A stretch of 64,000 bases of DNA from an uncultured Candidatus Saccharibacteria bacterium (GCA_964406895.1 CAYOTK010000003.1:9529-73528); one strand, 5' to 3'; shown: positions 7,857-51,904, numbered from the stretch's first letter. Made by a program: numbers and translations. The notes: generated by a model from the sequence alone, not told the origin.

Positions 7857-8645
7857 TCAGTGTCGCCGCCTCCATTCTTGGTGGTATCCACGACCTTTCC
7901 GACCGCGGCCATCAGTCCAACCGTTTTCGCCGGGTTTGGGCTTTTTTCCGCGATTGCACCCGCCGGCTGCCATAACCAGCTCTTCGGGACTTTTGTCTCC
8001 GGAGGTTTCTTCGCCGGATTCTCCAGTAAGACTCTCGGTGTCCGGTCCGAAAATTCCCGGACTCCACTCACGCACCGTTGTCTCGATGGTGGCCGGCAGC
8101 TTCGCTTGAGGCAAAACGGTTAAGACCGGTGCGGTTTCAGTGATGATCACCGATTGATGGCCGTTTCGCGCCGGTTTGTTTGGTTTCATGGGAATGACCT
8201 TGCCATTGAGAGCCTTTTCCAGCTCCGCCAGGCCGTTTTTGTTTTCCGCATCACGAAGGTAGAAGTGTTTGTACCCCCATACGTAAGCCCGGGGTTTTTC
8301 GCTGTCGTAGGTCGGCGGTCGATTATCCAGGATGTAAAGGATCTTATTTCCGACCCGAGGTGGTTGGTTGAAAACCTCGCGCTTAATGTAGGGGTCGCCG
8401 TTATCGTTGGCGGAGACCTTACGACTTCGATTCATTTCGAAGTAGATCTCTACGCCGCTCGCGAGATCAATTGCCAGGCCGCACCAGCGAGTCGGATTAT
8501 ACTCAGTCACTCTCGCCGTTCGGATTTTGCCCCAAATATACTGAGTTGCACTCATGTAGTTTTTCTCCCATCTCCCCAAACAAACCATTATGGTCGAGCA
8601 TAGCTCTTGGAATATCCTCATTTGATCAACCGCCAAGCTGATCAA
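7857..8645 (-). CDS. hypothetical protein in a high-GC island, with an Arg/Gly-rich C-terminal tail (start may be the internal ATG at 8555)
   Basis: 262-aa ORF in a ~57% GC block. A TTGACA-N17-TAGTCT promoter-like motif lies upstream on the minus strand (8670-8700). C-terminus ...GRGRKGRGYHQEWRRRH. No family recognised. Confidence 0.45.
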   Translation of the reverse strand: MISLAVDQMRIFQELCSTIMVCLGRWEKNYMSATQYIWGKIRTARVTEYNPTRWCGLAIDLASGVEIYFEMNRSRKVSANDNGDPYIKREVFNQPPRVGNKILYILDNRPPTYDSEKPRAYVWGYKHFYLRDAENKNGLAELEKALNGKVIPMKPNKPARNGHQSVIITETAPVLTVLPQAKLPATIETTVREWSPGIFGPDTESLTGESGEETSGDKSPEELVMAAGGCNRGKKPKPGENGWTDGRGRKGRGYHQEWRRRH

Positions 8646-9214: not shown

Positions 9215-12200
9215 ATGGACAGCGACGATAGCTACCCACGCCGAACCAGCGACCATAATGATACCAATAAGTTATCTTTCAAAAAGATAATTTTTCTTTT
9301 AGTTGGCATAATGTTCTTGCCTGGCATAGTTTATTCAGCGACTGGCGAGGTGCAGTTCAGTATTGCTTCTCAATATCAAATTGGTACGGCAGGAAGTTAT
9401 TTCAACAACGGCAATACTATTGCAAAAGTTTTCGATGGTGATTTGACTACTTGGTGGGATGCCAACCAATCATATGCGAATGGTTCAAATGTTGGTCTGG
9501 ATCTTACCGTAAATGCCAAGGTTACAAGAATGAGAGTGGCACCAAGAACTGGTTATACCGTGAGATTATTCGGTGCCGTATTGCAGGGAGCGACGGTAAG
9601 TTCAAGTACAGGACCTTGGACAACAATTTATACGATTCCTAGCTTCCCACCGTTCTATCCTCAGAGGCAACTCAATGAGATCTCTATAGATACTTCAGGA
9701 CAATATTACAGATATTATAGATTGGTGATGCCAAACGGGGCATACGGCTCGCTAGCGGAGATGAGATTGATAGGAGTAGCTTCTAGTACGACGCCATATT
9801 TACCAGTGGCGCCAACAATAAGTCCGATGGGAGGGAGGTTTCATCAACCGATACAAGTCAGTCTAAGTAGTCTGACAACAGACGCAACAATTTACTACAC
9901 AACAGATGGTACGACTCCAACATATAGTGGAGGTTCTCCACAAGGGACAACGCAGTTATATTCAGGACCGTTTATGGTAACAAATACTGCGACGACGACC
10001 GTCAAAGCTATTGCAGTTAGTGCTTCAACATATGTTTCTGAAGTTTCTGATACAGCGTATTTCTATATCAATCCATCATTTTATTCAGGCTGGAATTGGT
10101 ATGACACTTCAGGGCACCTCATAGAATCTCACGATGGCGGAATAAGTTATTTCAATGGTAAGTATTATTGGTACGGAGAAACTCTCAATAATAGTTCTCC
10201 CGAAATTGAGACGTTGGGTGCAACAGTTTATTCCTCGAATGACTTGCTCAATTGGAAATATGAAGGAATGGCATTATACGTCAACAATGCCTATAAACTA
10301 GAAAGACCGCATGTAATATACAATGCGACTTCAAGCACTTATGTTATGTGGGCACACAATGTGACGAATGCAAGAGCCGTCATTGCCACATCCAGTTCAC
10401 CGCTTGGACCATTTACAGCGTCTACTACATCTCAAAATCCAGACGGTATGGGCATGAATGATATGACTTTGTACAAGGATACAGACGGGACGGCATATCT
10501 TATATATACTTCAAGTGATAATACAAAGATGGTTATTTCTCGTTTAACGAGTGACTACGCTACTACTTCAAATACTTACATCACCTCATCAGCGAATGCC
10601 AATCGTAGCGCGCCTGCCGTATTCAAACGCGGTAGCATATATTTCTTGCTCAACTCCGGTCAAAACAGTTGGACAGCTACCGCCAATAAATATTCGACTT
10701 CAACAAGTATGTTGGGTACTTGGTCGACCCTTACAAATCCATTCCAATCAAGTGCAGAAGAAGATTATACTTTGGCCTATCATTCTCAAACCACTGATGT
10801 TCTTACGGTGCAGGGCAGAACAGATGGTTATGTATATATAGGCGACAGATTCGATGGTTCTGCGACCGCCTCGGGTTCTCTTTATAACAGTAGACATGTT
10901 TGGTTACCAATTACATTTCCTTATGCAGGAATGATGTCCATATCTTGGGCAAGTAGCTGGAGTTTGGACAGTGCATTTACTTCAGCGACCCTGCCAACTT
11001 CAGTTTCCAATCTTACAGCGACCAAAAACGGTTTATCAGTCAATCTTTCTTGGACTAACAATGAAACAAATTCATATAGCTTGTATTTGGATAGGGCTAC
11101 TGATAGTGCATTTACTCAAAATTTCATTTCAATATTTGCAAGTACAACTTTGAGTTCGTATACAGATTCAAATATCGTTAATGATACAAAATATTATTAT
11201 CGAATTCGAGTTATCACTGCGGCCGGGGTCAGCACATCATCGACTGTTATCGGTGATTTCTTACTATCTTCAGATACCACGGCTCCACAAGGCGAAATAA
11301 CAGTTCCGAGCAATGGAGCAACTGTGGTAGGCAGAACTGTTACACTTACTGCCTCTTCTTCAGATAATATTCAGGTCAGTTCTGTCCAATTCCAAGTCGA
11401 TAATGTAAACGTGGGTTCTTCCGGTGCAACATCGCCATATTCTATAACTTGGGATTCTACATCTGTATCAGACGGAGATCACACTATTCATGTTGTTGTA
11501 ACAGATAGTTCAGGCAATATCGCTACTTCAAGCGACGTAACTGTTCATGTTGCCAATCAGACTGTTACTGTAACTCCCGATGTCTCTACAATAGTCCAGA
11601 ATACAACCGGCAATACTATTGTTATAACAGGTAATGCGACATCATGGACGCCAGGCACTCCAGGTTCACCAACATTTAGTATAAGTGGGGGAACAGGTAC
11701 AACAATTACTAGTCAGACAGTTTCCAATAGCACAACAGCCACCCTAACTATTTCAGCGGGAAGTGCTGTTGGTACTTTCAAGATAATAGCGCCCGATAGT
11801 AATGCTTCAACAACTATAACTGTTTCGGCGGATACCATCGCACCTTTAGTTAGTATTACAACGCCGTCAGATGGCGCAACTCTTTCTGGATCAACTGTTA
11901 CTCTTACAGCATCGTCATCCGACAATGCAGCGGTTACAAGTGTTCAGTTCAAATTAGACAATGTAAGTATCGGTTCTTCAGGTGCAACATCGCCATATTC
12001 TATTACCTGGAATTCAACATCGGTGTCGGATGGTACCCACACTTTGGTTGCTGTCGTTGCGGACGGAGCAGGGAATATAAGTTCTTCTACAGCTATCAGT
12101 GTAACCATCAACAATTCTGTTGTGGCTTCTGTTTCGACATCAAACGCTTCATCCGTAGATATGTTTTCGGCTGTATTCAATGGTGTTATTTCAAATGATG

Positions 12201-15100
12201 GCGGTGCTAGTTCTACGGTGAAAGGTTTCCAATATGGTCTGACCAGTTCTCTCGGCACGACAATTTCCGAATCAGTTTTGGCAGGGGTCGGTAATTATTC
12301 TACAACCACAACAGGTCTTTCATGCGCCACTACATATTATTATAGATTCTATTCAACAAATCTTTCTGGAACTTCGTATGGTACAACCAAATCATTCACA
12401 ACATTGACTTGTCCTGCAGCCTCAGTATCAGGAGAAATACAATTTAGTACCGCATCGGCATACCAATTCGGTACTTCCGGTAGTTACAATAATAGTGGTA
12501 ACGTCATTTCAAAAGTTTTTGATAATGACGTTACAACATGGTGGGATTCTCAGACTGCAAACGGTGCTTATGCGGGATTGGATCTTAGAGTTCCACAAAT
12601 TGTTACAAGAATGAGAATTGCACCTCGAACTGGTTATACAGTTCGTGTTTATGGAGCCATTTTGCAGGGAGCGACAGTTAGTTCGACAACAGGTCCTTGG
12701 ACAAATATATACACCATACCTAGTTATCCTCCTTACTATGCGCAGAGACAGATGAATGAAATTGCAGTAGATACGGGTGGCAGTTCTTACAGATATTATA
12801 GGATAGTAATGCCTGATGGTACGAATGGTTCTTTGGCTGAATTCAAATTGATCGGTAATGCAGGAACAACGACGCCGTTTATTCCTGTAACTCCAACCAT
12901 AAGTCCAAATGGCGGGCAATATAGTTTGCCCATGAGAATAAGATTGAGTAGTTTGACTACCAACGCTTCGATCTACTATACAACTGATAATACAGTTCCT
13001 GCGGTTTCAAATGGCGTGCCTCAAGGCACTACACAACTTTATTCTGCTCCATTCACACTGAGCGCTTCGTCAACAGTTAGAGCGATAGCGGTGAGCACGC
13101 TCGGTCAAAACACTTTCACTTCAGAAGTTTCAGAACCATCATACTTTTATTTTGATACAGATTTCAAACCAGGCCAGAATTGGTACGATGAAGATGGTCA
13201 TCTCATAGAGTCTCATGATGGAGAAGTAGCATATTTCAATGGCAAGTATTATTGGTATGGACAGATATTCAACGGCAATGATCCTGAGAATGAAGCGGTG
13301 GGTGTTTCCGCTTATTCGTCGAGTGATCTTATTCATTGGAAAGATGAAGGTCCAATCATTTATATGGGTAGATCATATATGCTAGAAAGACCGCATGTTA
13401 TTTACAATGATTCAACACATAAATACGTTTTATGGGGGCATCACGTTATATCGTCAGGACATTCAACGGCTGTCGTTGCATATAACGATAGTCCTACGGG
13501 AGCATTCACTGTTGCAACAAGTTCATACAATCCTGATGGTTTGTATTTGAATGACATGAATCTTTACAAAGACGTAGATGGTCAAGCATATTTGTTATAT
13601 TCGATAGGTACAAATACTCAGTTCGTAATTTCTAGATTGACCTCAGATTATTTGCAAACTTCTGGTACGTATATAACTCCTGCCGTTCTTGCGGGTAGAG
13701 AAGCGCCCGCCATGATATTGAGAAATGGTGTGTATTTCTTATTAACTTCAGGCTTGTCTGGTTGGGCTCCAAATGAGAATAAATATTCAACTTCAACTAG
13801 TGTTATGGGTACTTGGTCATCTCTAGTAGATCCATTTCAAACAAGTGTTTTGGAGGATAGACTGACAGCATATCATTCTCAGACTACTGATATACAACAT
13901 GTACCAGGAAGAGGAGATGCTTATATTTATATTGGTGACAGATTCGATTATTCAAACACTTTGGCCGGCTCGCTTTATTATTCAAGGCATATATGGTTGC
14001 CCATGACATTCCCGACCAATAATACTATGTCTATAACGTGGGAACCGACTTGGAATCTAGACACTGTTTTCCCAACTGTTTATCCGCCTACAGCACTGAG
14101 CAATTTCACAGTTAGTAGAAGTGGCACCTCCGCAGACCTTTCTTGGACCAACAATGCCACGACATCTCACATGATATATGTAGATAGGGCAACTGATCAA
14201 AATTTCACTTCAAACGTAGTATCTGATCTTCGTCCCGAAGGTGCGACAACATTTACAGATTCATATTTATCATTGGGCACAGATTATTATTACAGAGTTC
14301 GTATAGTTAATGCAGACGGAACGAATTATTCAAGTACAGTTTCTACTATTGTAGTTGATAGTACGGCTCCAACACTTTCCTTGGCGTCTCCCTCTGGTAC
14401 TTTATCTATAAATACTACAAGTACATCTCTCAGTATTCAGACAAGTGAAAATGCTACATGTAAATATTCAACAATTTCCAATATTACATACTTGAGCATG
14501 ACCGCCTTCGACAACACAGGAGCTACCACGCACACGACAAATGTCAGTGGTTTGAGTAATGGTTCAACTTACAATTATTACGTCAAATGCGCAGACAGTT
14601 CGAATAATATAAGTGATCAAGCAACTATTACTTTCTCTGTGGCAAGTGAGACAGCGCCAACGCCTACACCGACCTCAGCATATGATCAGTCAGCCCATAC
14701 TTCATACGGTTCTTTTAATCTATATTATTACAACAAATATGTTGTACCAAACTTGCCACAAAATATTAAATCCAAGACAACTTCTAATAATCAGAAAAAT
14801 AATAATGTTTCAAGTTTCACTTCATTCAAGACAGAAATTAAAATGGGTTCTATAACAGAAGATGTTAGGGAATTGCAGAGGTTCCTGAATAAAAATGGTT
14901 TTCCAGTTGCGAAGACGGGCCCTGGATCCCCAGGCAAGGAAACAAATGTTTTCTCTACAGGAACTCAAGCAGCACTTATGAAATTCCAGGAAAAATACAA
15001 AAAACAGATTCTGGTTCCTGCTGGTCTCAATAAACCAAATGGTGTATTGGGTCCAAATACTAGGAAGCTCATTAATTCTATGAATGGAAAAAATAACTAG
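9215..15100 (+). CDS. giant secreted/cell-surface protein (1961 aa) with a tandem-duplicated module
   Basis: Each module reads, in order: F5/8-type-C (discoidin) domain with the TTWWD motif; CHB_HEX_C-like Ig domain (IYYTTDGT); GH43-like five-bladed beta-propeller (YKDTDG, S.DL..W, EAPA...YFLLTSG); FN3; Big/Ig domains. The C-terminus carries a PG_binding_1-type peptidoglycan-binding domain (LQRFLNKNGF...GPGSPG...QAALMKFQEKY). N-terminal signal/TM. Confidence 0.85.
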   Translation: MDSDDSYPRRTSDHNDTNKLSFKKIIFLLVGIMFLPGIVYSATGEVQFSIASQYQIGTAGSYFNNGNTIAKVFDGDLTTWWDANQSYANGSNVGLDLTVNAKVTRMRVAPRTGYTVRLFGAVLQGATVSSSTGPWTTIYTIPSFPPFYPQRQLNEISIDTSGQYYRYYRLVMPNGAYGSLAEMRLIGVASSTTPYLPVAPTISPMGGRFHQPIQVSLSSLTTDATIYYTTDGTTPTYSGGSPQGTTQLYSGPFMVTNTATTTVKAIAVSASTYVSEVSDTAYFYINPSFYSGWNWYDTSGHLIESHDGGISYFNGKYYWYGETLNNSSPEIETLGATVYSSNDLLNWKYEGMALYVNNAYKLERPHVIYNATSSTYVMWAHNVTNARAVIATSSSPLGPFTASTTSQNPDGMGMNDMTLYKDTDGTAYLIYTSSDNTKMVISRLTSDYATTSNTYITSSANANRSAPAVFKRGSIYFLLNSGQNSWTATANKYSTSTSMLGTWSTLTNPFQSSAEEDYTLAYHSQTTDVLTVQGRTDGYVYIGDRFDGSATASGSLYNSRHVWLPITFPYAGMMSISWASSWSLDSAFTSATLPTSVSNLTATKNGLSVNLSWTNNETNSYSLYLDRATDSAFTQNFISIFASTTLSSYTDSNIVNDTKYYYRIRVITAAGVSTSSTVIGDFLLSSDTTAPQGEITVPSNGATVVGRTVTLTASSSDNIQVSSVQFQVDNVNVGSSGATSPYSITWDSTSVSDGDHTIHVVVTDSSGNIATSSDVTVHVANQTVTVTPDVSTIVQNTTGNTIVITGNATSWTPGTPGSPTFSISGGTGTTITSQTVSNSTTATLTISAGSAVGTFKIIAPDSNASTTITVSADTIAPLVSITTPSDGATLSGSTVTLTASSSDNAAVTSVQFKLDNVSIGSSGATSPYSITWNSTSVSDGTHTLVAVVADGAGNISSSTAISVTINNSVVASVSTSNASSVDMFSAVFNGVISNDGGASSTVKGFQYGLTSSLGTTISESVLAGVGNYSTTTTGLSCATTYYYRFYSTNLSGTSYGTTKSFTTLTCPAASVSGEIQFSTASAYQFGTSGSYNNSGNVISKVFDNDVTTWWDSQTANGAYAGLDLRVPQIVTRMRIAPRTGYTVRVYGAILQGATVSSTTGPWTNIYTIPSYPPYYAQRQMNEIAVDTGGSSYRYYRIVMPDGTNGSLAEFKLIGNAGTTTPFIPVTPTISPNGGQYSLPMRIRLSSLTTNASIYYTTDNTVPAVSNGVPQGTTQLYSAPFTLSASSTVRAIAVSTLGQNTFTSEVSEPSYFYFDTDFKPGQNWYDEDGHLIESHDGEVAYFNGKYYWYGQIFNGNDPENEAVGVSAYSSSDLIHWKDEGPIIYMGRSYMLERPHVIYNDSTHKYVLWGHHVISSGHSTAVVAYNDSPTGAFTVATSSYNPDGLYLNDMNLYKDVDGQAYLLYSIGTNTQFVISRLTSDYLQTSGTYITPAVLAGREAPAMILRNGVYFLLTSGLSGWAPNENKYSTSTSVMGTWSSLVDPFQTSVLEDRLTAYHSQTTDIQHVPGRGDAYIYIGDRFDYSNTLAGSLYYSRHIWLPMTFPTNNTMSITWEPTWNLDTVFPTVYPPTALSNFTVSRSGTSADLSWTNNATTSHMIYVDRATDQNFTSNVVSDLRPEGATTFTDSYLSLGTDYYYRVRIVNADGTNYSSTVSTIVVDSTAPTLSLASPSGTLSINTTSTSLSIQTSENATCKYSTISNITYLSMTAFDNTGATTHTTNVSGLSNGSTYNYYVKCADSSNNISDQATITFSVASETAPTPTPTSAYDQSAHTSYGSFNLYYYNKYVVPNLPQNIKSKTTSNNQKNNNVSSFTSFKTEIKMGSITEDVRELQRFLNKNGFPVAKTGPGSPGKETNVFSTGTQAALMKFQEKYKKQILVPAGLNKPNGVLGPNTRKLINSMNGKNN

Positions 15101-17274: not shown

Positions 17275-17943
17275 ATGTTTAATAAGGAAAAGCTCATCAC
17301 GAAATTCGTCAGAATTACGCAGTTTGCGACATGGCCAATATTATATCCGCTCTTTCATGTTATGTTTCGTATAGAAATTATCAATCGTCACAAAATTGAT
17401 AATATATCAAGACCTTTTATTATTGTCGCCAATCATACCAATTTCTACGATAGTTTTATCTTCAGAATTGTTTTTGGTTTCAAATATTTGCCACTTAGAT
17501 TCATGGCTGTTACAAAGTTTGATTGGGATTTCCTGAACAAATTGGCTCATTGTGGAATTATCAATTTTATATACTCATTATTTGGAGTTTTTACGGTCAC
17601 TCCAGGTCTTGGTATTGAGAAAAATCTTATTCGTCCCATAAACATTATCCGAAATGGTGGCAATGTTCTCATATACCCTGAGGGTCGTATTATTCATTCA
17701 GAGCACATTGGTCCATTCAAGAAGGGTGCTGTTGTTCTTGCTCAGAAAACTGGTAGAGATATTTTGCCTATATGTATGAAATTTACCAAAACCAATTCAT
17801 ATCGTAAGCATTTGAAAATAATTATTTTGAAGAAATTCAGATGTCCAGCTCACAAATCTTCTGATGTTTTGACCAATGAACTAAGAGATATTATTGTGGC
17901 AGTGAATGATGCTTCCGAGAGTCATTCAGGAAGGGAAGTGTGA
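17275..17943 (+). CDS. 1-acyl-sn-glycerol-3-phosphate acyltransferase family (PlsC-like)
   Basis: ANHTNFYD (HX4D) and YPEGR motifs. Start set at the internal ATG at 17275, just after the valS stop. Confidence 0.7.
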   Translation: MFNKEKLITKFVRITQFATWPILYPLFHVMFRIEIINRHKIDNISRPFIIVANHTNFYDSFIFRIVFGFKYLPLRFMAVTKFDWDFLNKLAHCGIINFIYSLFGVFTVTPGLGIEKNLIRPINIIRNGGNVLIYPEGRIIHSEHIGPFKKGAVVLAQKTGRDILPICMKFTKTNSYRKHLKIIILKKFRCPAHKSSDVLTNELRDIIVAVNDASESHSGREV

Positions 17944-19603
17944 CTGTTACAGTTGCGCCCATATTTTCTCCAGGGGATTCGATCGTGATTTCCCCTCTAT
18001 GCGCACGAACTATTGCACGAGCCACTGACAGGCCTATGCCCATGCCGATTGGGTGAGTATCTTGAGCCTTTTTGCTCCTATAGAATAGTCGAGTAAATAA
18101 ATTATTTCTTTCTTCTTTTGTAATACCCACGCCCGTGTTTTCTACGAATACTTGGAGGACTTCACTCTCATGGCCGTGCATATTTTTCACTGATCTTTCT
18201 GTAGAGATTTTTATTTCGCCGTCTTTTCTGTTGTAACGTATAGCATTTTCTATGATTATCAATACGACTTCATGGATTTTGCTTATATCAACGTCTATTT
18301 CAGGCCAGTTTCTATCGTCTTTTGGATAAGTAATATTTATATTCATATTTCCTATATCGATTTTGAGCTCGCTCAATACTTGTTCCAGAATAGTCTTCAT
18401 GTTCGCTCTTGATATTTCGAGGATTTCTGAGCCGGTCCTAATAGCTGTAATATTCAGGAAATCATCCACCAACCTAAGTAATCTCCGCGTGCAAATGTCT
18501 ATATTACGTATCGAAGTCATTGCTTCTTCATTGATCGCGCCCCGTTCGCCCTTCATAAGTGCTTCTGTTTCCCAACGAATACTGGTAACTGGTGTGCGCA
18601 AATTATGCTGTGTAATCATAATGAACTGATCTTTCGTCTCATTGAGTTTTTCCAATTCTCGCCTGACGCCTTTTTCCATCTCAAACGCCTTCTTCACTTC
18701 CGCTGTTTGCTCCGCGACCTTCTGTTCCAGGGTGAGGTTGAGGATGCGGAGGGATTCTTGTTGATTGACTTCATGAATAATACTTTTAAATAGATACAAA
18801 GAAAAAATTATAAATAATATTAAGGTAGCAATCTTAAGCAAAACATTTGAGTTAATATCTGTAAAAATATTTATGAAGAATAATAGCGTCATACCGACAG
18901 CGAGTAGTTCAGCAATTACTGCCTTAACGTCCATTTGTTTATATTTGATTATGGAATATGAAATAATTGGAATCCATATTATTTCCGAAGCCGCCCCCAG
19001 CCAATTTAATTTGAAGTATCCGAGCCTAGGTAAAATTATACACATAATTGTTGCTGGTATTGAACCTGTTACGATGGTTAGTAACATGAATTTAATATTT
19101 GATCTGATTTTAATATCTATATTTCGGATTAATTTTTTTAGTAATATCAAGATTCCAAACACGAAGCAGAAGCCAAATATAAATTCAAACACAAATGAAA
19201 TTGGCCCAAAATCCCATCTCCAGTAGCCGGTGGTACTTAGATTGACCGTTGATATTATGCCTTCAGTAAATATAAAAATAATGCCGAGAGCCACTGATAA
19301 CAGAGTAAGGATATTTTGATATATTTTATTTACGTTATGGTTTTCTGGATAAGACAGAAAAAATATTAGAAAACTAATTGCAATTATATCGCCCATAAGG
19401 TAATTAATTCTTGCCACGTATAATGCAAGTTCTGCTGATCTCGTAGATGTTAAAATTGCAACACCAGCAATCCAGATTGATACCCAGAATATGCTATTTG
19501 AAAAAGCTTTGGAGGATATCTTGTCACTACCTAATCTTATAATAAGAGCCAAGCTAAATATAATTGAAGCCACGATCCACACAATTAGTGAAATATTAAC
19601 CAT
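17891..19603 (-). CDS. sensor histidine kinase with a multi-TM N-terminus
   Basis: 570 aa with at least 8 predicted TM helices. HisKA H-box ITQHNLRTPVTSI and HATPase_c N/G boxes. Confidence 0.8.
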   Translation of the reverse strand: MVNISLIVWIVASIIFSLALIIRLGSDKISSKAFSNSIFWVSIWIAGVAILTSTRSAELALYVARINYLMGDIIAISFLIFFLSYPENHNVNKIYQNILTLLSVALGIIFIFTEGIISTVNLSTTGYWRWDFGPISFVFEFIFGFCFVFGILILLKKLIRNIDIKIRSNIKFMLLTIVTGSIPATIMCIILPRLGYFKLNWLGAASEIIWIPIISYSIIKYKQMDVKAVIAELLAVGMTLLFFINIFTDINSNVLLKIATLILFIIFSLYLFKSIIHEVNQQESLRILNLTLEQKVAEQTAEVKKAFEMEKGVRRELEKLNETKDQFIMITQHNLRTPVTSIRWETEALMKGERGAINEEAMTSIRNIDICTRRLLRLVDDFLNITAIRTGSEILEISRANMKTILEQVLSELKIDIGNMNINITYPKDDRNWPEIDVDISKIHEVVLIIIENAIRYNRKDGEIKISTERSVKNMHGHESEVLQVFVENTGVGITKEERNNLFTRLFYRSKKAQDTHPIGMGIGLSVARAIVRAHRGEITIESPGENMGATVTVTLPFLNDSRKHHSLPQ

Positions 19604-20987: not shown

Positions 20988-22589
20988 ATGAATTTGTTTT
21001 CTATATCATCAGTTATATTATGTCTTAGTGGTATTGTTTTTAGTTTTATAATATATAGGACGGACAGTAAAAACAAAATAAATAGGGCCTGGTTTTATTC
21101 ATGTATCAGTTTTTCAATATGGGCATTAAGTTTGTCGGGCGTTACATTGGCAAAAACAATTGAAACTGCGTTTTTCTGGCAAAAAATTTTAGATGTATCC
21201 GCAATTTTTTTACCTTACTTGTACTTGGTATTCGTATTAAAATTATTAAAAATAGAGTGGAAATTCATTAAACGATTTCTATTTGTTTGTGTAATACTGT
21301 TAAGTATATTCAGTTTTACTAGTCAGTTTAAAATTGGCATGAAATATGAATACGATTTCTTTTGGGTAGATGCCGGTAAATATTATTTCATGTTCTTAGA
21401 ATATTTTATATTTTATGCCATTTTGTGTATGGGACTGCTTTTTTATGGATATTTTAAATCGGAAAAAAATAGTGTTGCTCGATTTCAAATAAGAAATACA
21501 ATCTTAGGAGGTATTATTGGTTATGGTGGAGGGGTTACAAATTTTTTTCCTCAGCTTTTTAGTATATATCCATATGGTAATTATCTTGTGATTCTTTATA
21601 TAGTTGTCATGGTTTATGGTGTTTTAAGATATAAATTGCTAAGCGCTAAGGTTATAAGTGCACAAATTTTTTCAGTTTCTCTAATCCTAATTTCCTTGTT
21701 TAGTTTACTCAAGACAACCTCTACAGGAGACTGGCTAATAAATTTCTTAATTTTTGTCCTTGTTATAATCTTCAGTATATTTCTTAATAGTAGTGTTAAG
21801 CAGGAAATTAAATCTAGAGAAAAGGCTGAAATCCTCGCCTCCGATCTCGAGACCAGTAACAAGCACTTGGTGGACCTGAATAAACAAAAATCAGAATTCG
21901 TATCGTTTGCAACGCATCAGTTGAGAGCACCGCTTACAGCCATGAAAGGATATGCCTCACTTCTTCTTGAAGGTGATATGGGCAAGCTTGAACCTGAATC
22001 GAGAGTCGGTATTTCCAGGATATTCGAGGCTTCGAAGACACTCGCTAGCATTGTTGAAGATTACCTGAATTTGACTCGAATTGAACTCGGTTCCATGAAA
22101 TATGCCTTCGATGCCGTAGATCTGAGATTACTTATCGAGAATGTTCTTGCTGAATTGAAACCATCAATTGATGAGAAGACAGAGGTCAAGTTTGCATATG
22201 ATTATGAGCGTATAGGCAGTACATATCGCATTACGGCTGATAAAGAGAAATTGAAACAAGTTATATCAAACATTATTGATAATGCATTGAAATATACACC
22301 GAGCGGAAAAGTTTCAGTGTATTTGGGTTTTGATAGATCGAAACATCGATTTATTTTGACTGTAGAGGATACAGGTATAGGTATATCAAAAGATATATTA
22401 CCGAGATTATTTATGAAATTTAGTCGTGCAGATAATGCCAATATGACAAATATTAAGGGCACAGGCTTGGGCCTCTATGTCGCTAGAGAAATTATGAATG
22501 CGCACGGTGGTACTATTGATGCAAAATCAGAAGGTGAGGGGAAGGGGTCGAAATTTATCCTAGAATTTGAACCTTTGGTAACAGCATAA
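20988..22589 (+). CDS. sensor histidine kinase with a multi-TM N-terminus
   Basis: 533 aa with a 5-7 TM sensor. H-box FATHQLRAPLTAM. G-boxes DTGIGISKD and GTGLGLYVAREIMNAHGGTI. Confidence 0.8.
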   Translation: MNLFSISSVILCLSGIVFSFIIYRTDSKNKINRAWFYSCISFSIWALSLSGVTLAKTIETAFFWQKILDVSAIFLPYLYLVFVLKLLKIEWKFIKRFLFVCVILLSIFSFTSQFKIGMKYEYDFFWVDAGKYYFMFLEYFIFYAILCMGLLFYGYFKSEKNSVARFQIRNTILGGIIGYGGGVTNFFPQLFSIYPYGNYLVILYIVVMVYGVLRYKLLSAKVISAQIFSVSLILISLFSLLKTTSTGDWLINFLIFVLVIIFSIFLNSSVKQEIKSREKAEILASDLETSNKHLVDLNKQKSEFVSFATHQLRAPLTAMKGYASLLLEGDMGKLEPESRVGISRIFEASKTLASIVEDYLNLTRIELGSMKYAFDAVDLRLLIENVLAELKPSIDEKTEVKFAYDYERIGSTYRITADKEKLKQVISNIIDNALKYTPSGKVSVYLGFDRSKHRFILTVEDTGIGISKDILPRLFMKFSRADNANMTNIKGTGLGLYVAREIMNAHGGTIDAKSEGEGKGSKFILEFEPLVTA

Positions 22590-22610
22590 ACCAGCCATAG
22601 ACGGTTGTGC

Positions 22611-22640
22611 GCTCCATGGTTTCGTCCAGTGGAGCGCGGG
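22611..22640. repeat. GC-rich hairpin at the left edge of a high-GC island
   Basis: gcgctccatgg...ccagtggagcgc (10-11 bp stem), immediately 3' of the minus-strand ORF stop. No T-run follows. Confidence 0.4.
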
Positions 22641-22841
22641 TTAATCGTCGTGATGCCAACGCTCGTCTTCTTCCCGCTCCTTTTCTTCAAGAGCTGAAGC
22701 GACGTGATTGGCCCAATTGTTGCCACCTACATTTTTGTGTCTGACCGGCGACATCTTGTTACTTCCGTGGGAGGATCGAAACTCTTCTTGCATTCTTTTT
22801 ATAATTTCAGCTGGATCCTCATAGGGTTGTTCAGGTTTCAT
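22641..22841 (-). CDS. hypothetical 66-aa acidic protein in a high-GC island
   Basis: TTGACA-N16-TACAAT lies upstream on the minus strand (22865-22895). Confidence 0.35.
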   Translation of the reverse strand: MKPEQPYEDPAEIIKRMQEEFRSSHGSNKMSPVRHKNVGGNNWANHVASALEEKEREEDERWHHDD

Positions 22842-22962
22842 TTGTCCATGATTGTACGCTACTTAGTTTTTTTGTCAAATGTGGATAAACTACAATTTAT
22901 GTTGCATAAAAACTATTTATATATGTTACAATTATGTTAAATATATCTAAATAAATAAAAAA

Positions 22963-24315
22963 ATGAAATTAAAAAACCACATTTATTCATATGTAACTAT
23001 ATTACTATTTGCATTCATTACGATATTTTCAGTGAATACAAAAACAGCCTCAGCTCTCACGGTTGCAAACGTTATGGGTTATGCTTGGTCCTCCAACATC
23101 GGTTGGATTAGTTTCAGTTCTGATAATATAACCTTAGGTCCGACTCCAACGCCAACATCAGGTGGCTCTGCCCCAACTCCATACCAAGTAAAAGTCAGAG
23201 CTTCTGGAACTACCGGCATCTTCGAAGGTTATGCATGGTCGTCCAACATTGGTTGGATTAGTTTCAATTCTGCAGATATCGTGGCTGCTGGTTGTTCATC
23301 GTCTGCTAGTGATGTCGCCACCATAAAAGATTTCAAAACAGGAGAGATCGCTGGATGGGCAGTGGCTCTTGCTGGTTCTGGTAGAACTGATGGCTGGGAT
23401 GGATGTATCAAACTTGCAGGCACCAATCATCTTTCATTGAATACGGCAACAGCTCTTATTAACGGTACTAGATATAACATCGGTGGCGTTCGCTATGATC
23501 CTGCAAGCGGCACCATAAAAGGTTTTGCATGGGGAGGTAATGTCGTTGGTTGGGTCAATTTTGATACTTCTTCCGTGATAAATACAGAAACAGTCAAATG
23601 TAAAGATTGCGTGAAGATTCAGCCTATTGCGTTTTCAGCCACATGTACAACATCATCTAGTGTTTCAGGCGTAGCTCCATTGTCTGTTACTTTTTCAGCC
23701 AATCCAAATCCTAGTTCAGGTTCCTATTCTTATTCTTGGTATCTTATAGGCCAGAATTCAATAGCTCCAGGAAATACATCTACAATTTCATTTACTTATA
23801 GCACGCCAGGTACTTATAATCCGATTGTTCTCGTGGCAGATACTGCTGTAGATCCAACTAATCAATATGCTGCCGCTTGTCCTACAATTACCGTTACAGC
23901 TCCACCTGCTACTCAAACACTTAATCTTTACTTGGTCCCGAATGTTTCCAGTCCAACTGCTGCTCCAAATACAACTCAGCTTTCAAGTGCCAGAAGTGCA
24001 CCTGCTGATAACATCATAACTATGAGAAGGGGAAGTGTGGCGCTCATGGGGTTGGATGTTGCGGGGTATTCGGATTGTATTCCATTTAATGCCGGTGGAG
24101 TAACCAGTTGGAACAAAATTTTTCCCGATCAAAATGTTGACGAACTAATTACGAACGATTTGCAAAATGGTAAATTCGTAAGCATTGATACTTCAAAAGT
24201 ATCTTCAGGTATCGTATATACTGCGCGTATAATATGTGTGGAAGATTCGACAATGCAATCAAAATTTGACTATGTTAATTTTAAAGTAACCTCGTCCGGA
24301 TTAAAAGAATTTTGA
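22963..24315 (+). CDS. secreted protein with three WSSNIGWISF-type repeats and a PKD domain
   Basis: Signal/TM at the N-terminus. GYAWSSNIGWISF occurs twice and GFAWGGNVVGWVNF once. PKD-like segment APLSVTFSANPNPSSGSYSYSWYL. Confidence 0.7.
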   Translation: MKLKNHIYSYVTILLFAFITIFSVNTKTASALTVANVMGYAWSSNIGWISFSSDNITLGPTPTPTSGGSAPTPYQVKVRASGTTGIFEGYAWSSNIGWISFNSADIVAAGCSSSASDVATIKDFKTGEIAGWAVALAGSGRTDGWDGCIKLAGTNHLSLNTATALINGTRYNIGGVRYDPASGTIKGFAWGGNVVGWVNFDTSSVINTETVKCKDCVKIQPIAFSATCTTSSSVSGVAPLSVTFSANPNPSSGSYSYSWYLIGQNSIAPGNTSTISFTYSTPGTYNPIVLVADTAVDPTNQYAAACPTITVTAPPATQTLNLYLVPNVSSPTAAPNTTQLSSARSAPADNIITMRRGSVALMGLDVAGYSDCIPFNAGGVTSWNKIFPDQNVDELITNDLQNGKFVSIDTSKVSSGIVYTARIICVEDSTMQSKFDYVNFKVTSSGLKEF

Positions 24316-24329
24316 TTCATATTGCAGTA

Positions 24330-24360
24330 AGCAAAAAGGCTCGACCAGTGGTCGAGCCTC
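24330..24360. terminator. hairpin terminator (functional on the minus strand; bidirectional candidate)
   Basis: aaaaa-ggctcgacc-agtg-ggtcgagcc (perfect 9-bp stem). A T-run follows on the minus strand. Confidence 0.5.
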
Positions 24361-24386
24361 GCGAAATGGAGCATGGGTAGGTTTGT

Positions 24387-25466
24387 TTACCTTCCCATCA
24401 GATGACCCCGCTGGGCGTTTGAAAGCCCCACAGGGGTAACCTTGAAAAACCTGAGAGTTTCCGGTTTCTCGACCAACAACTTCCACTGGTTCGACGTGCT
24501 TGCGCTCGTCATGCCATAACCCTCGAGGCTCCATTCTCGAAGATTAGTTGTCGATTCGACGATGAACCCTTGAAAAGGATCGCCTTTTACAATCACGGCG
24601 ATTCCCTCTAGAGATTTGACGATACCACTTTTGGGCTTTTCGAACTCAATCTCGAGCCCAGTGTTGCCATTGAACTTGTGGTACCGATCATTCTCCTGTA
24701 CGAAGATGGTAATCTTGTACACACTGCCGCAGGCAAATTCCCGACTAGTCCGCAGGTATTTCTCACCCACGATTTGGAGGTTTGTAGTCCCATCCAAGGA
24801 GTCGTAGTTTGTAATAACGACTCCACTTTGGTCGGAAACGATCATTCGTGCCCACGTGATTCCTGGCAAGGCCAGGATACTGAGATTCTCCTCAAGCCTC
24901 GGCGTGATCTCGCGCAAGACCTGTGGAATTGTGTAGTCGTTGCCGGCCTTGTCGTACTTAAACGTCGTAGCCGACTGAAACGAGACGGGGTTGTCGACAT
25001 CAACATCGGCCATCCCTGCCACGATCGTCAGGGGAAGTTCTTTGTTGACCGTATTTGTTTTCAACCCACTCTCTGCGACTTTGACGGCGTTTAACCGTAC
25101 CTTGTCGCAGAGATCGGCGAATCCCTTGATGGCATAGTAGTCGTAGGAAGACTTTCCCACAACCTTGCCATTTTGGAACATGGACACCCTAACAAAGTAT
25201 ACGTTAGAGGCCCAGTAGTCCTTCACCCAACTTTCCTCGCCCATTACGAGCCGAAGCGGAGTGACACCGTCTGCGAGCATCGTTCCCGAAAGAACGATGA
25301 AGGCGGTTACGAGGGCCGCCAGCCCTTTGGTCATGATCTTCATCGTCTTTCTTTCTCTCCCATCGCTGGGAGTTAGATTTTGTGGTTCCGACGTCTTCCG
25401 ACATCGTCGAATCCGTACGGCAACCATACCGTACTTCTTCAGGTTCTTCAGTTTTGAAAGAACCAC
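24387..25466 (-). CDS. hypothetical secreted protein in a high-GC island (alternative start 25343, MKIM..., with signal peptide)
   Basis: 359-aa ORF in a ~52% GC block. TTGCAT-N17-TAAAAT with an extended TG lies upstream (25480-25520). Confidence 0.45.
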   Translation of the reverse strand: MVLSKLKNLKKYGMVAVRIRRCRKTSEPQNLTPSDGRERKTMKIMTKGLAALVTAFIVLSGTMLADGVTPLRLVMGEESWVKDYWASNVYFVRVSMFQNGKVVGKSSYDYYAIKGFADLCDKVRLNAVKVAESGLKTNTVNKELPLTIVAGMADVDVDNPVSFQSATTFKYDKAGNDYTIPQVLREITPRLEENLSILALPGITWARMIVSDQSGVVITNYDSLDGTTNLQIVGEKYLRTSREFACGSVYKITIFVQENDRYHKFNGNTGLEIEFEKPKSGIVKSLEGIAVIVKGDPFQGFIVESTTNLREWSLEGYGMTSASTSNQWKLLVEKPETLRFFKVTPVGLSNAQRGHLMGR

Positions 25467-34583: not shown

Positions 34584-35306
34584 TTAACTTCCAGTTGACG
34601 CTCTCGTCGCCTTGTCTTTTGCGAGTTCAGCCGCTGCTTGCCTGTAGATTTCTCCTTTATCGAGCGTCAAACCGAAGTCAATCGTGGCTGTGTTCCAGAT
34701 TCGATCAAATGCGTTCTCGCAATGTCCGATCCAGTTGCCAGCGTGAATCACGCTGTGGCGAGCCACATTCGGTACGACCCTAATTGACTCGAATTCGTCT
34801 TGTGCTGCGAGAACTCTGTAGGCAGCACTGATGAGTCGTTGCGAGACCGTCGATTCACCGAGTCCGTCCCAGTAGGGATTTCCTTGACCGAGGAAGTTGA
34901 GCGAACCAACTGACTCACGGAGTCGGGCGAACATTTCTTCGCAGGTCTCGACTTTTTCCCTTGCGGCTTGGTTTTTGTTTTCTAAACGATCAAGCCATTT
35001 GAGACACGCAAACGACATGGAGCCAATCACTACGACCCAAGGAACGCCATAGGTGCCGTGGGAAGTAATAGCAATTACCAACATTGCCGCGGTGAGACCG
35101 TAAAGCAATAATAGGATACGGTTGCTTTTTTTACAGTTTCGACTAACCTGATTAATAGCTACGTTTCTTTCTTGCGCGGCCTTAATCAAGCTGTGACCCT
35201 GGTTCACCTTGTTCTCCCACTTCAAGCGGAGACTCTCCGAGACGACACGCATCAAGCACTCGATTTCTTCGTTACTAATTTTCATGGATCTTTCTTTCAA
35301 TGCCAT
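34584..35306 (-). CDS. hypothetical membrane protein in a high-GC island
   Basis: 240-aa ORF at ~54% GC with a central TM helix. No family recognised. Confidence 0.4.
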   Translation of the reverse strand: MALKERSMKISNEEIECLMRVVSESLRLKWENKVNQGHSLIKAAQERNVAINQVSRNCKKSNRILLLLYGLTAAMLVIAITSHGTYGVPWVVVIGSMSFACLKWLDRLENKNQAAREKVETCEEMFARLRESVGSLNFLGQGNPYWDGLGESTVSQRLISAAYRVLAAQDEFESIRVVPNVARHSVIHAGNWIGHCENAFDRIWNTATIDFGLTLDKGEIYRQAAAELAKDKATRASTGS

Positions 35307-35561: not shown

Positions 35562-35804
35562 TTACTCTTCACGAGACAATCCGAAGTCGCGACGTCGCTT
35601 GTTTCTGCGCATCTCAGTGACCGAATCGCTTATGCCCGCTACTTCGCTGAATCCACCTCTACAAAGGTGGTGTTGCTCGTGCGGAGGGCCATGATGGTGC
35701 CAACACCTTTTTTCATCGGTAAGCGCCGCTGAAGAAATTATTTCGAGGTGTTTCCGGGTGGGCTTAAGCCCCTCGAGATAAAGACCTATTAAATGTTTTA
35801 GCAT
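35562..35804 (-). CDS. hypothetical 80-aa His/Cys-rich protein in a high-GC island
   Basis: CWHHHGPPHEQHHLC. TTGACA and TATAAT lie just upstream on the minus strand. Confidence 0.3.
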   Translation of the reverse strand: MLKHLIGLYLEGLKPTRKHLEIISSAALTDEKRCWHHHGPPHEQHHLCRGGFSEVAGISDSVTEMRRNKRRRDFGLSREE

Positions 35805-51193: not shown

Positions 51194-51586
51194 TTACCTC
51201 AAAGACGCTAGAAGACCACTCACACTTGACGAGGTAACCGAAAGGGTGAATTCATCGTCAGTCGAAATTACTTCAAGTGTCCACAGTGGTGATTGAAGCT
51301 TGATGGTTCCGCCTCCACCAACACCATGCACGCCAGAGACCGTTATTTCTTGCGCGTGCACAGAGGGAAGACCAAGTTCGGGCAACTTGCTCACCAACTG
51401 ACCTAGGGGTGTACAGCCAAGCTCGGTCAGAGCACTGTCAATGTTGTGTCCGTTCGGCATCAGATTTGGCGTCTCGTTCGCAATCGCTACTTGTTCGAAT
51501 AACTGCAGGAACTCTGCCATTTGGACAGCTTGAGAGTTCCCACCATCCAACAATTTCAACAGGTTGATATTTGTTTGCATAACCAT
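51194..51586 (-). CDS. hypothetical 130-aa protein with a Gly-rich loop (GVHGVGGGGT), in a high-GC island
   Basis: Second gene of a two-gene minus-strand operon. No family recognised. Confidence 0.45.
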   Translation of the reverse strand: MVMQTNINLLKLLDGGNSQAVQMAEFLQLFEQVAIANETPNLMPNGHNIDSALTELGCTPLGQLVSKLPELGLPSVHAQEITVSGVHGVGGGGTIKLQSPLWTLEVISTDDEFTLSVTSSSVSGLLASLR

Positions 51587-51592
51587 ACTCCT

Positions 51593-51904
51593 TCACTTAT
51601 TCCTCCGGGGTGAGCCGGGGAACTTAGTTGTTAGCAACACTTCCAATTTCTCCGCGCCGTGCGGGGAGTTGAGTATTGCTGTGAGTGCACCAAGAGAATC
51701 CTTTCCGTGGTCCCGAATCGCGCATGCATACCAGCGTCCAGCTTTCGCTTTCTTCTGGCTTCCGGTGTATTTAAACACCAGTGCATATGCTTTTGTGGGA
51801 CTTGAAGCAGATTCAACAAGGTTGAGCAATTTAGGACAAGTCCAAATTGCCTTGGAGCGTGTCAGATAACCAATGATTTCGACAGCGTCGTCCTCAGAGT
51901 ACAT
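51593..51904 (-). CDS. hypothetical 103-aa basic protein in a high-GC island
   Basis: First gene of the operon. A TTGTAA-N17-TG-TATAAT promoter and an AGGAA SD lie upstream on the minus strand (~51925-51985). Confidence 0.45.
   Translation of the reverse strand: MYSEDDAVEIIGYLTRSKAIWTCPKLLNLVESASSPTKAYALVFKYTGSQKKAKAGRWYACAIRDHGKDSLGALTAILNSPHGAEKLEVLLTTKFPGSPRRNK

Follow-up and report, generated by a model that had tools for sequence, protein, structure and literature searches.

The stretch of DNA considered here (the window) comprises 64,000 nucleotides (nt) of one strand from an uncultured Candidatus Saccharibacteria bacterium (GCA_964406895.1 CAYOTK010000003.1:9529-73528) and carries, at positions 22963-24315, a gene for a modular protein of 450 amino acids (aa) in which a tryptophan-rich module is followed by immunoglobulin (Ig)-like domains and a short conserved tail. 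The identical protein was found in NCBI and in Logan, on a 106.7-kb contig, and all of its 128 homologues are labelled hypothetical and belong to Patescibacteria, i.e. to the Candidate Phyla Radiation (CPR). The gene and its parts, as recognized from the open reading frame (ORF), from alignments and from AlphaFold2 (AF2) models with their predicted local distance difference test (pLDDT) scores, are the following.

22963-24315, plus strand: whole gene, 450-aa secreted modular protein (ORF call, ATG start)
22963-23055, plus strand: Sec-type signal peptide, aa 1-31, predicted cleavage after TASA (AF2 helix, aligned homologues)
23056-23571, plus strand: four-unit Trp-rich all-beta module, aa 32-203 (AF2, conservation, profile search)
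23077-23115, plus strand: unit 1 hairpin motif GYAWSSNIGWISF, aa 39-51 (HHalign of unit 1 against unit 2, probability 99.5%)
23134-23181, plus strand: lineage-specific Pro/Thr-rich loop between units 1 and 2, aa 58-73 (gap-rich region of variable length in alignment A2)
23227-23265, plus strand: unit 2 hairpin motif GYAWSSNIGWISF, aa 89-101 (DNA repeat family D7, HHalign)
23353-23418, plus strand: unit 3, degenerate and with an insertion, GWAVALAGSGRTDGWDGCIKL, aa 131-152 (family conservation)
23521-23562, plus strand: unit 4 hairpin motif GFAWGGNVVGWVNF, aa 187-200 (HHalign of unit 2 against unit 4, 98.5%; of unit 1 against unit 4, 97.7%)
23635-23901, plus strand: PKD-like Ig domain, aa 225-313, Cys228/Cys306 (borderline Pfam match, AF2 strands, Foldseek)
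23902-24012, plus strand: S/T/P/A-rich linker, aa 314-350 (composition, lower pLDDT)
24013-24291, plus strand: C-terminal Ig-like domain, aa 351-443 (strain-variable; alignment A4)
24292-24312, plus strand: conserved free C-terminal tail SSGLKEF, of the form [S/P]-x-Φ-x-E-Φ-COOH (family alignment)

A preliminary description of the locus had drawn attention to a motif occurring three times in the N-terminal part of the protein. The motif is indeed there, GYAWSSNIGWISF starting at aa 39 and aa 89 (nt 23077-23115 and 23227-23265) and GFAWGGNVVGWVNF at aa 187 (nt 23521-23562), within a module that is built of four units and forms one domain. An exact repeated 13-mer was met in none of 2000 shuffles of the protein, and a repeated 6-mer in 1.1% of them. 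At the DNA level the repeat (family D7) extends over 53 nt with 87% identity between the copies, and the differences are synonymous; two identical protein copies that differ by synonymous changes in their DNA speak for a conserved protein repeat and against both a recent duplication of the DNA and an artefact of assembly.

Units 1, 2 and 4 are homologous by profile-profile comparison (HHalign probabilities of 97.7-99.5%). A fourth, degenerate unit, namely unit 3 (GWAVA...GRTDGWDGCIKL), is kept across the family in the alignment of homologues, with G131 invariant and W132, G144, W145, D146, G147 and L151 at least 90% conserved. Taken alone in the unit-level comparison it gives weak probabilities (26-60%); the N-terminal half of the module as a whole matches the C-terminal half at 98.3%, and the last strand of unit 3 (GCIKL) pairs with the IGWISF strand of unit 1. 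Each unit is approximately 27-50 aa long and ends with the aromatic hairpin G-[YWF]-A-W-[SG]-x-x-[IV]-G-W-[IV]-x-F, so that the full consensus, approximately [Y/G]-V-x-V-D-x-x-T-G-x-Φ-x-G-[YWF]-A-W-[SG]-x-x-[IV]-G-W-[IV]-x-F, describes a strand followed by a Trp-Trp hairpin. Across the module W42, W48, W92, G97, W98 and G131 are invariant, and W132, W145, W190 and W197 are at least 90% conserved. The protein, which is the first sequence of alignment A2, thus shows all the features by which members of the family are recognized, i.e. four units, the invariant W-x5-W hairpins, G-W-D-G in unit 3 and a match to the module profile.

In the full-length AF2 model, computed with an alignment of 94 sequences (mean pLDDT 82.7), aa 7-23 form a helix, aa 33-200 are all beta, and Ig-like sandwiches occupy aa 225-312 and 321-443; in the Pro/Thr-rich loop pLDDT falls below 50 at aa 60-67. 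When the module is folded alone it is again all beta, with a pLDDT of 85.6 and a predicted template modelling score (pTM) of 0.82. In relatives with many repeats the hairpins, by reading of the sequences, tend again to come in groups of about four, and this grouping, together with the isolated fold, makes the four-unit module look like the structural unit. The presence of Trp on both strands of a tight turn of the N-G type recalls the designed tryptophan-zipper hairpins of the SWTWENGKWTWK type and suggests that cross-strand aromatic pairs stabilize each hairpin. The parallel concerns the structural idea and is not drawn from coordinates, tryptophan zippers being designed 12-mers and not a natural domain.

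The repeat had initially been described as matching no recognized domain, and a Pfam scan, a search across CPR proteomes and structure prediction had been proposed as checks, with a match to a well-described family as the outcome that would overturn the statement. No such match emerged in the libraries searched. The Pfam scan gave no match to the repeat in the protein, where the borderline PKD domain was the only one found, nor in five multi-repeat relatives, and nothing recurrent among 49 N-terminal modules even at E<=10. The repeat was also unmatched in NCBIfam, PHROGs and PADLOC, and searches of PDB sequences, by phmmer with the single sequence and also with the profile, gave chance matches only. 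Among the candidates discarded along the way are Bcl-xL, whose profile matches in the PDB (E~0.5) are due to chance, the protein being all alpha, and CBM_6, which was matched by one of the 49 modules at E 0.002 and was not recurrent. Structure prediction, carried out on the whole module with the result given above, provided the query for Foldseek, which returned for the isolated module a best E of 0.99 and a best TM score of 0.36 against the PDB and no match in BFVD. The motif strings were not found in the papers searched, and keyword searches turned up nothing on the module family. The module family is, therefore, undescribed in the libraries searched here.

In its general plan the protein is of a familiar kind: a secreted surface protein composed of modules, in which aromatic beta-hairpin repeats are combined with Ig spacers. 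The choline- or cell-wall-binding repeats (CW_binding_1, PF01473) are also short aromatic beta-hairpin repeats with G-W, found in Gram-positive surface proteins that are Sec-secreted, non-covalently retained and fitted with interchangeable functional domains, and they may provide the favoured functional analogy. However, the PF01473 hidden Markov model (HMM) is matched neither by the protein (E<=1) nor by the 49 modules (E<=10), and those repeats form an open run of ~20-aa elements, whereas here four units of ~27-50 aa are closed into a compact module. The Clostridial hydrophobic-W (ChW) repeat (PF07538), which occurs in secreted proteins of unassigned role, has, like the units found here, a conserved Trp embedded in N-[IV]-G-W, but its HMM is matched by only one of the 49 members, at E 2.5, and the module is not a member of that family. 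A third parallel is with the PKD-containing surface or surface-layer proteins of archaea and bacteria, e.g. 1l0q, in which an all-beta repeat module, a YVTN beta-propeller, precedes PKD/Ig spacers. The 1l0q structure ranks second in the Foldseek search with the full model, but the match comes from the Ig/PKD part, and the N-terminal module alone has no significant match. The module, the terminal tail and the cassette of variable tip and partner gene described below are without counterpart in the libraries and papers searched.

Profile search and a scan of GTDB species genomes show that the family is very large. The profile of the module found 9,194 representatives of clusters at 50% identity with E<=1e-3, of which 7,003 reach E<=1e-10, and the GTDB scan yielded at least 565 confirmed loci. 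Among the 80 GTDB loci listed almost all are labelled Patescibacteria (Taylor-, Nomura-, Nealson-, Wolfe-, Yonath-, Niyogi-, Adler-, Colwell-, Sungii- and Paceibacterota, besides third-party-annotation (TPA) metagenome-assembled genomes labelled Saccharibacteria), and two bear a Gammaproteobacteria label. The family is found mostly in Paceibacteria-type Patescibacteria and is not strictly confined to the CPR, the carriers outside it including a 3,269-aa Desulfobacterales protein and proteins with bacterial TSP3 repeats, with up to 12 matched stretches of the module. A phage origin was considered and rejected, no relatives being found in IMG/VR viral contigs.

Export of the protein, which had also been proposed at the outset, is supported by the anatomy of the N-terminus. 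The sequence MKLKNHIYSYVTILLFAFITIFSVNTKTASA, followed by LTV, contains a hydrophobic core and an A-x-A site, replaced by V-x-A at the aligned position in homologues; with its basic region and the AF2 helix at aa 7-23 it has the features of a Sec signal peptide cleaved by signal peptidase I (SPase I), as judged by reading of the sequence and of the aligned homologues. Neither a lipobox Cys nor a prepilin G-F-T-L-I-E motif is present in the protein, and the class III signal peptide G/[FM]T[LI][IL]E is not found at its N-terminus and occurs only in some neighbouring genes, in four of 78 related loci. A sortase anchor is likewise missing, there being no LP.TG in the protein and no hydrophobic segment at the C-terminus, which ends in ...TSSGLKEF. 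The eight cysteines fall into domain-wise pairs (111/148, 213/216, 228/306 and 372/425), which fits an extracellular protein. In CPR members the module mostly starts directly after the signal peptide.

The PKD-like domain and the Thr/Pro-rich region noted at first sight behind the repeat are both supported. Pfam PF00801 matches aa 230-294 (E 1.2e-4) with a score of 22.4 bits, slightly below the gathering threshold of 23.5, which is passed by the orthologue P0012 (24.8 bits); the homologue P0001 has a precomputed PF00801 match. The Ig-like beta-sandwich fold is recognized in the AF2 strands at aa 225-312 and by Foldseek, which finds tandem Ig and PKD structures with E~1e-5, in keeping with two tandem Ig-like domains in the model. 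Between them, aa 312-350 are 62% S/T/P/A, and the linker has pLDDT block means of 63-77. In the C-terminal domain Cys372 and Cys425 are invariant in alignment A4; a search with the A4 profile found two fragments of close relatives only, a result that does not resolve whether the domain occurs apart from the Trp module. In P0001, a homologue of 684 aa with 78% identity, the block formed by PKD, linker and C-terminal Ig domain is tandemly duplicated almost exactly, so that the three parts can be copied as a unit.

Across the family the N-terminal modules are 36-52% identical, as compared with 25-38% for whole proteins, and the domains that follow the module vary (PKD, LamG, CARDB, Ig_Rha78A_N, TSP1 or Cys-rich). 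Fusions of the module to LamG, CARDB, PKD, Ig_Rha78A_N, TSP1 and bacterial TSP3 repeats represent an extracellular binding context.

The C-terminal tail is a further conserved element. The penultimate Glu is found in at least 90% of aligned members, an E-x ending in 80 of 120 listed homologues, with the last residues reading [S/P]-[STN]-Φ-x-E-[IF], and a related variant has the form L-P-x-W-x-E-[VI]-x-P. The ending is specific to the family, E[IFLV] closing 42 of 83 family proteins vs three of 467 neighbouring proteins in the 78 related loci. Since the tail sits behind terminal domains that differ (two-Cys Ig-like, Cys-rich or TSP1 repeats), it behaves as an independent element. It is predicted to be disordered, with pLDDT below 50 at aa 448-450. 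Conserved N-terminal module and terminal tail thus bracket an interchangeable middle, as would be expected if the module of one subunit captured the free tail of the next to build a surface fibre with variable middle domains. The free and unstructured state of the tail and the tandem family genes in three loci are in favour of such head-to-tail assembly. It is nonetheless quite unlikely, because members outside the CPR have the module and lack the tail, and signs typical of filaments are none. As a separate observation, two family genes, of ~390-520 aa and ~1,060-1,290 aa, are found per locus in L037, L039, L052 and L014, where they are adjacent, and in L032, where one gene lies between them; in L037, L039 and L052 both copies bear the E-Φ tail.

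The remaining features that bear on the gene lie immediately around it.

22924-22932, plus strand: probable extended -10 promoter element TGTTACAAT, ~30 nt 5' of the ATG (consensus only)
24336-24360, unstranded: 11-bp G+C-rich hairpin between the convergent genes and common to both (T-run on the minus strand)
24387-25343, minus strand: convergent partner c7, secreted protein of ~318 aa, G+C content (GC) 0.51, coinciding with the downstream high-GC island (ORF call)
22641-22841, minus strand: 66-aa ORF of the upstream high-GC island (ORF call; strain-variable)

The gene appears to be monocistronic in the window, having its own probable extended -10 element and the strong shared hairpin at 24336-24360; the element TGTTACAAT is kept in the related contig L001, where a 12-nt indel affects the sequence immediately 5' of it. 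The high-GC islands that had been noticed on both sides are real (0.46 at 22400-22850 and 0.50-0.52 at 24350-25400, with 0.39 for the whole window), and they prove to be separate minus-strand genes that coincide with the segments most variable among strains. On the downstream side, the ORF of c7 reaches 25466 from a GTG, its real start probably being Met42, and the homologues of its product, which has no domain match in any library searched, are 312-348 aa long. On the upstream side, the 66-aa ORF is preceded at 22878-22851 by the promoter-like TTGACA-16-TACAAT (11/12 matches), and its start region and the hairpin beyond its stop (from 22609) are conserved in L001; it has no family match.

How the strains differ is best seen by comparison with contig L085, from a near-identical strain, in which DNA identity is 96-100% over the flanks and codons 1-350 of the gene and falls to 59-68% over ~24000-25200 and to 63-84% at 22600-22900, where L085 has a 72-aa gene called at the position of the 66-aa ORF. 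The divergent block at 24000-25200 covers the C-terminal domain together with the mature portion of c7; the c7 protein retains 48% aa identity to the L085 copy, and the end that bears the signal peptide is conserved. Likewise, in comparison with P0002, aa 1-350 are 97-100% identical by domain, with 0.134 synonymous (dS) and 0.005 nonsynonymous (dN) substitutions per site (dN/dS ~0.04), whereas aa 351-450 are 63% identical (46% in aa 385-440), with dS 1.18 and dN 0.325. At least four alleles of the C-terminal domain are found on the same backbone. The approximately nine-fold higher synonymous divergence of this domain implies that the alleles are old and have been moved by recombination rather than generated in place.

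Hypervariability of a C-terminus on a constant backbone is also what a diversity-generating retroelement (DGR) would produce, and DGRs have been reported as common in the CPR. That the C-terminus is such a target is, however, largely refuted and barely credible, since no copy of the 3' region that could serve as a template repeat is found in the 64-kb window and no reverse transcriptase is encoded among the unannotated ORFs scanned, while dS is saturated (1.18) and the divergence runs through the neighbouring gene, a pattern that fits recombination and not adenine mutagenesis. The variation of the C-terminal domain and c7 points, instead, to cassette exchange by recombination. The constant backbone, the divergent terminal segment and the high synonymous divergence extending into the neighbouring gene are shared with recombining variable surface-protein loci such as pilin, adhesin and receptor cassettes, from which the locus differs in that silent cassettes, an invertase or a DGR were not found within the window.

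The 78 related loci place this partnership in a broader frame. The c6 and c7 groups of partner proteins are homologous (HHalign 98.6%, E 7e-16), and a c6/c7 homologue is convergent downstream of the family gene in 17 of the 78; in c6/c7 loci, 20 of 21 family proteins have the E-x tail vs 32 of 62 elsewhere. The C-terminus of c7 (VESTTNLREW...LRFFKV) weakly resembles that of multi-repeat members outside the CPR, e.g. P0139 (BLASTP E 0.2), a resemblance that is suggestive, is not relied on here and may, on the sequences compared, reflect a relationship between fusion and neighbour. A second unannotated secreted family, c1, adjoins the Trp-module gene on the same strand in 28 of the 78 loci (e.g. 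L024, L068:4909-5868, L054 and L070), being in L024 the second gene downstream, of 651 aa. Its members, 90-1130 aa long and without Pfam match, have a signal peptide followed by A-W-T-x-P-x3-P-P-x2-N-x2-A-P-I-N-V-x4-Q-x-K-x-G-x-L and may be a fibre-like partner. In the remaining loci the family gene lies among housekeeping genes, and the neighbourhoods are heterogeneous. In some Paceibacteria (L027, L074 and L070) it stands inside what we take, from the sequence of the genes, to be a ribosomal-protein cluster, with rplB (L027 and L074) or c1 (L070) on one side and rpsS-rplV-rpsC on the other.

In ~8 of the 78 loci pilB-pilC follow the family gene, and in four it stands beside prepilin-like genes, so that an accessory protein or adhesin of type IV pili might be considered. 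The chance that this is its role is slim, since the pilB-pilC loci share nusA/trigger-factor synteny and apparently represent one lineage, no pilus genes are near the gene in the window, and its signal peptide is of the Sec and not of the prepilin type.

A function based on operon context was considered and discarded, as the genes that surround it in the window, namely a pair of HisKA_7TM kinases, acyltransferases, YqeY, RmuC, RecR and DnaB, give no functional hint and the neighbourhoods of the 78 loci differ among themselves. The two HisKA_7TM histidine kinases, paralogues at 17891-19603 (minus strand) and 20988-22589 (plus strand), flank acyltransferase/HAD genes just upstream of the gene, and a kinase/acyltransferase context also adjoins the family gene in the Taylorbacteria-like loci L002, L037, L047 and L052. 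Elsewhere in the window, positions 9215-15100 (plus strand) encode a 1,961-aa protein with Glyco_hydro_43, Big_7, CHB_HEX_C_1/Fn3_assoc and PG_binding_1 domains and an internal tandem duplication of ~3.08 kb, the copies of which are 70-75% identical in DNA (families D1-D4 and D6 of the repeats). Further high-GC (0.49-0.53) orphan ORFs lie on the minus strand at 1-348, 7860-8645, 34587-35306, 35565-35804 and 51197-51904; the four longest have no Pfam match (35565-35804 being outside that scan), none resembles another, and, as with the two islands that flank the gene, they may vary among strains.

When these observations are considered together, the protein may tentatively be regarded, with a probability somewhat short of even, as a secreted surface protein in which a conserved base module carries a strain-variable recognition tip, i.e. 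as a candidate cell-contact protein. Modular in build, it would be exported through the Sec pathway to the cell surface of a CPR bacterium of the Paceibacteria type. By analogy with the aromatic hairpin repeats of Gram-positive wall-binding proteins, the conserved N-terminal module would act as the constant base and bind a conserved ligand, most plausibly a wall or envelope polymer of the producing cell itself or some other surface structure that is conserved. The Ig domains and the linker would form the stalk, and the variable C-terminal Ig domain, perhaps with the partner protein, would be the exposed recognition surface, presumably under frequency-dependent selection that acts through contact with host cells or escape from phages, its alleles being exchanged by homologous recombination. 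The tail, being conserved, would serve as a short recognition peptide for a partner.

The polarity of the molecule could also be the reverse, with the N-terminal module as an outward lectin or adhesin head for a conserved glycan of the host or partner and with the C-terminal Ig domain and the E-Φ tail docking on the producer, e.g. on c7. The co-occurrence of the tail and Ig-like C-terminal domain with c6/c7 (20/21), the family-specific nature of the tail and the many tandem copies of the module in non-CPR proteins, which recall the repeats of adhesins and lectins, are in line with such an arrangement. Yet a docking interface is expected to be conserved and a host-binding head variable, whereas the C-terminal domain and c7 are the most variable parts and the N-terminal module is the most conserved, which leaves the reversed orientation rather improbable.

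Several points weigh also against the proposal of a constant base with a variable tip. All of its functional steps are inferred, and so is the orientation of the protein relative to the cell. The role of the invariant Trp residues may be one of structure only, as cross-strand aromatic pairs, and not of ligand binding. Moreover, the joint divergence of the C-terminal domain and c7 could be due to mere physical linkage within one recombination tract, and a c6/c7 partner is found in only 22% of the related loci, others carrying c1 (28/78) or pilB-pilC (~8/78) instead.

Bacteria of the CPR probably live mostly attached to other cells, and hardly any proteins that mediate such contacts are known except from a small number of cultivated Saccharibacteria. 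The family described here is among the more widespread secreted families of Paceibacteria, with thousands of clusters at 50% identity and usually one gene per locus examined, and the combination of a constant base, a deeply divergent and recombining tip and a co-varying partner would be the expected appearance of contact or receptor proteins engaged in an arms race. Going further, it is conceivable, if doubtful, that the module, the E-Φ-COOH tail, the variable Ig tip and the co-varying secreted partner make up an unrecognized surface system of the CPR, either a self-assembling head-to-tail fibre or a two-component variable adhesin with which the ultra-small Paceibacteria would recognize specific host cells and become attached to them, with alleles recombining between strains. 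In practical terms, the module offers a new domain to be defined and solved structurally, the conserved tail may be used as bait for a partner, and the gene with its neighbour may provide a candidate host-specificity locus for the population genomics of the CPR.

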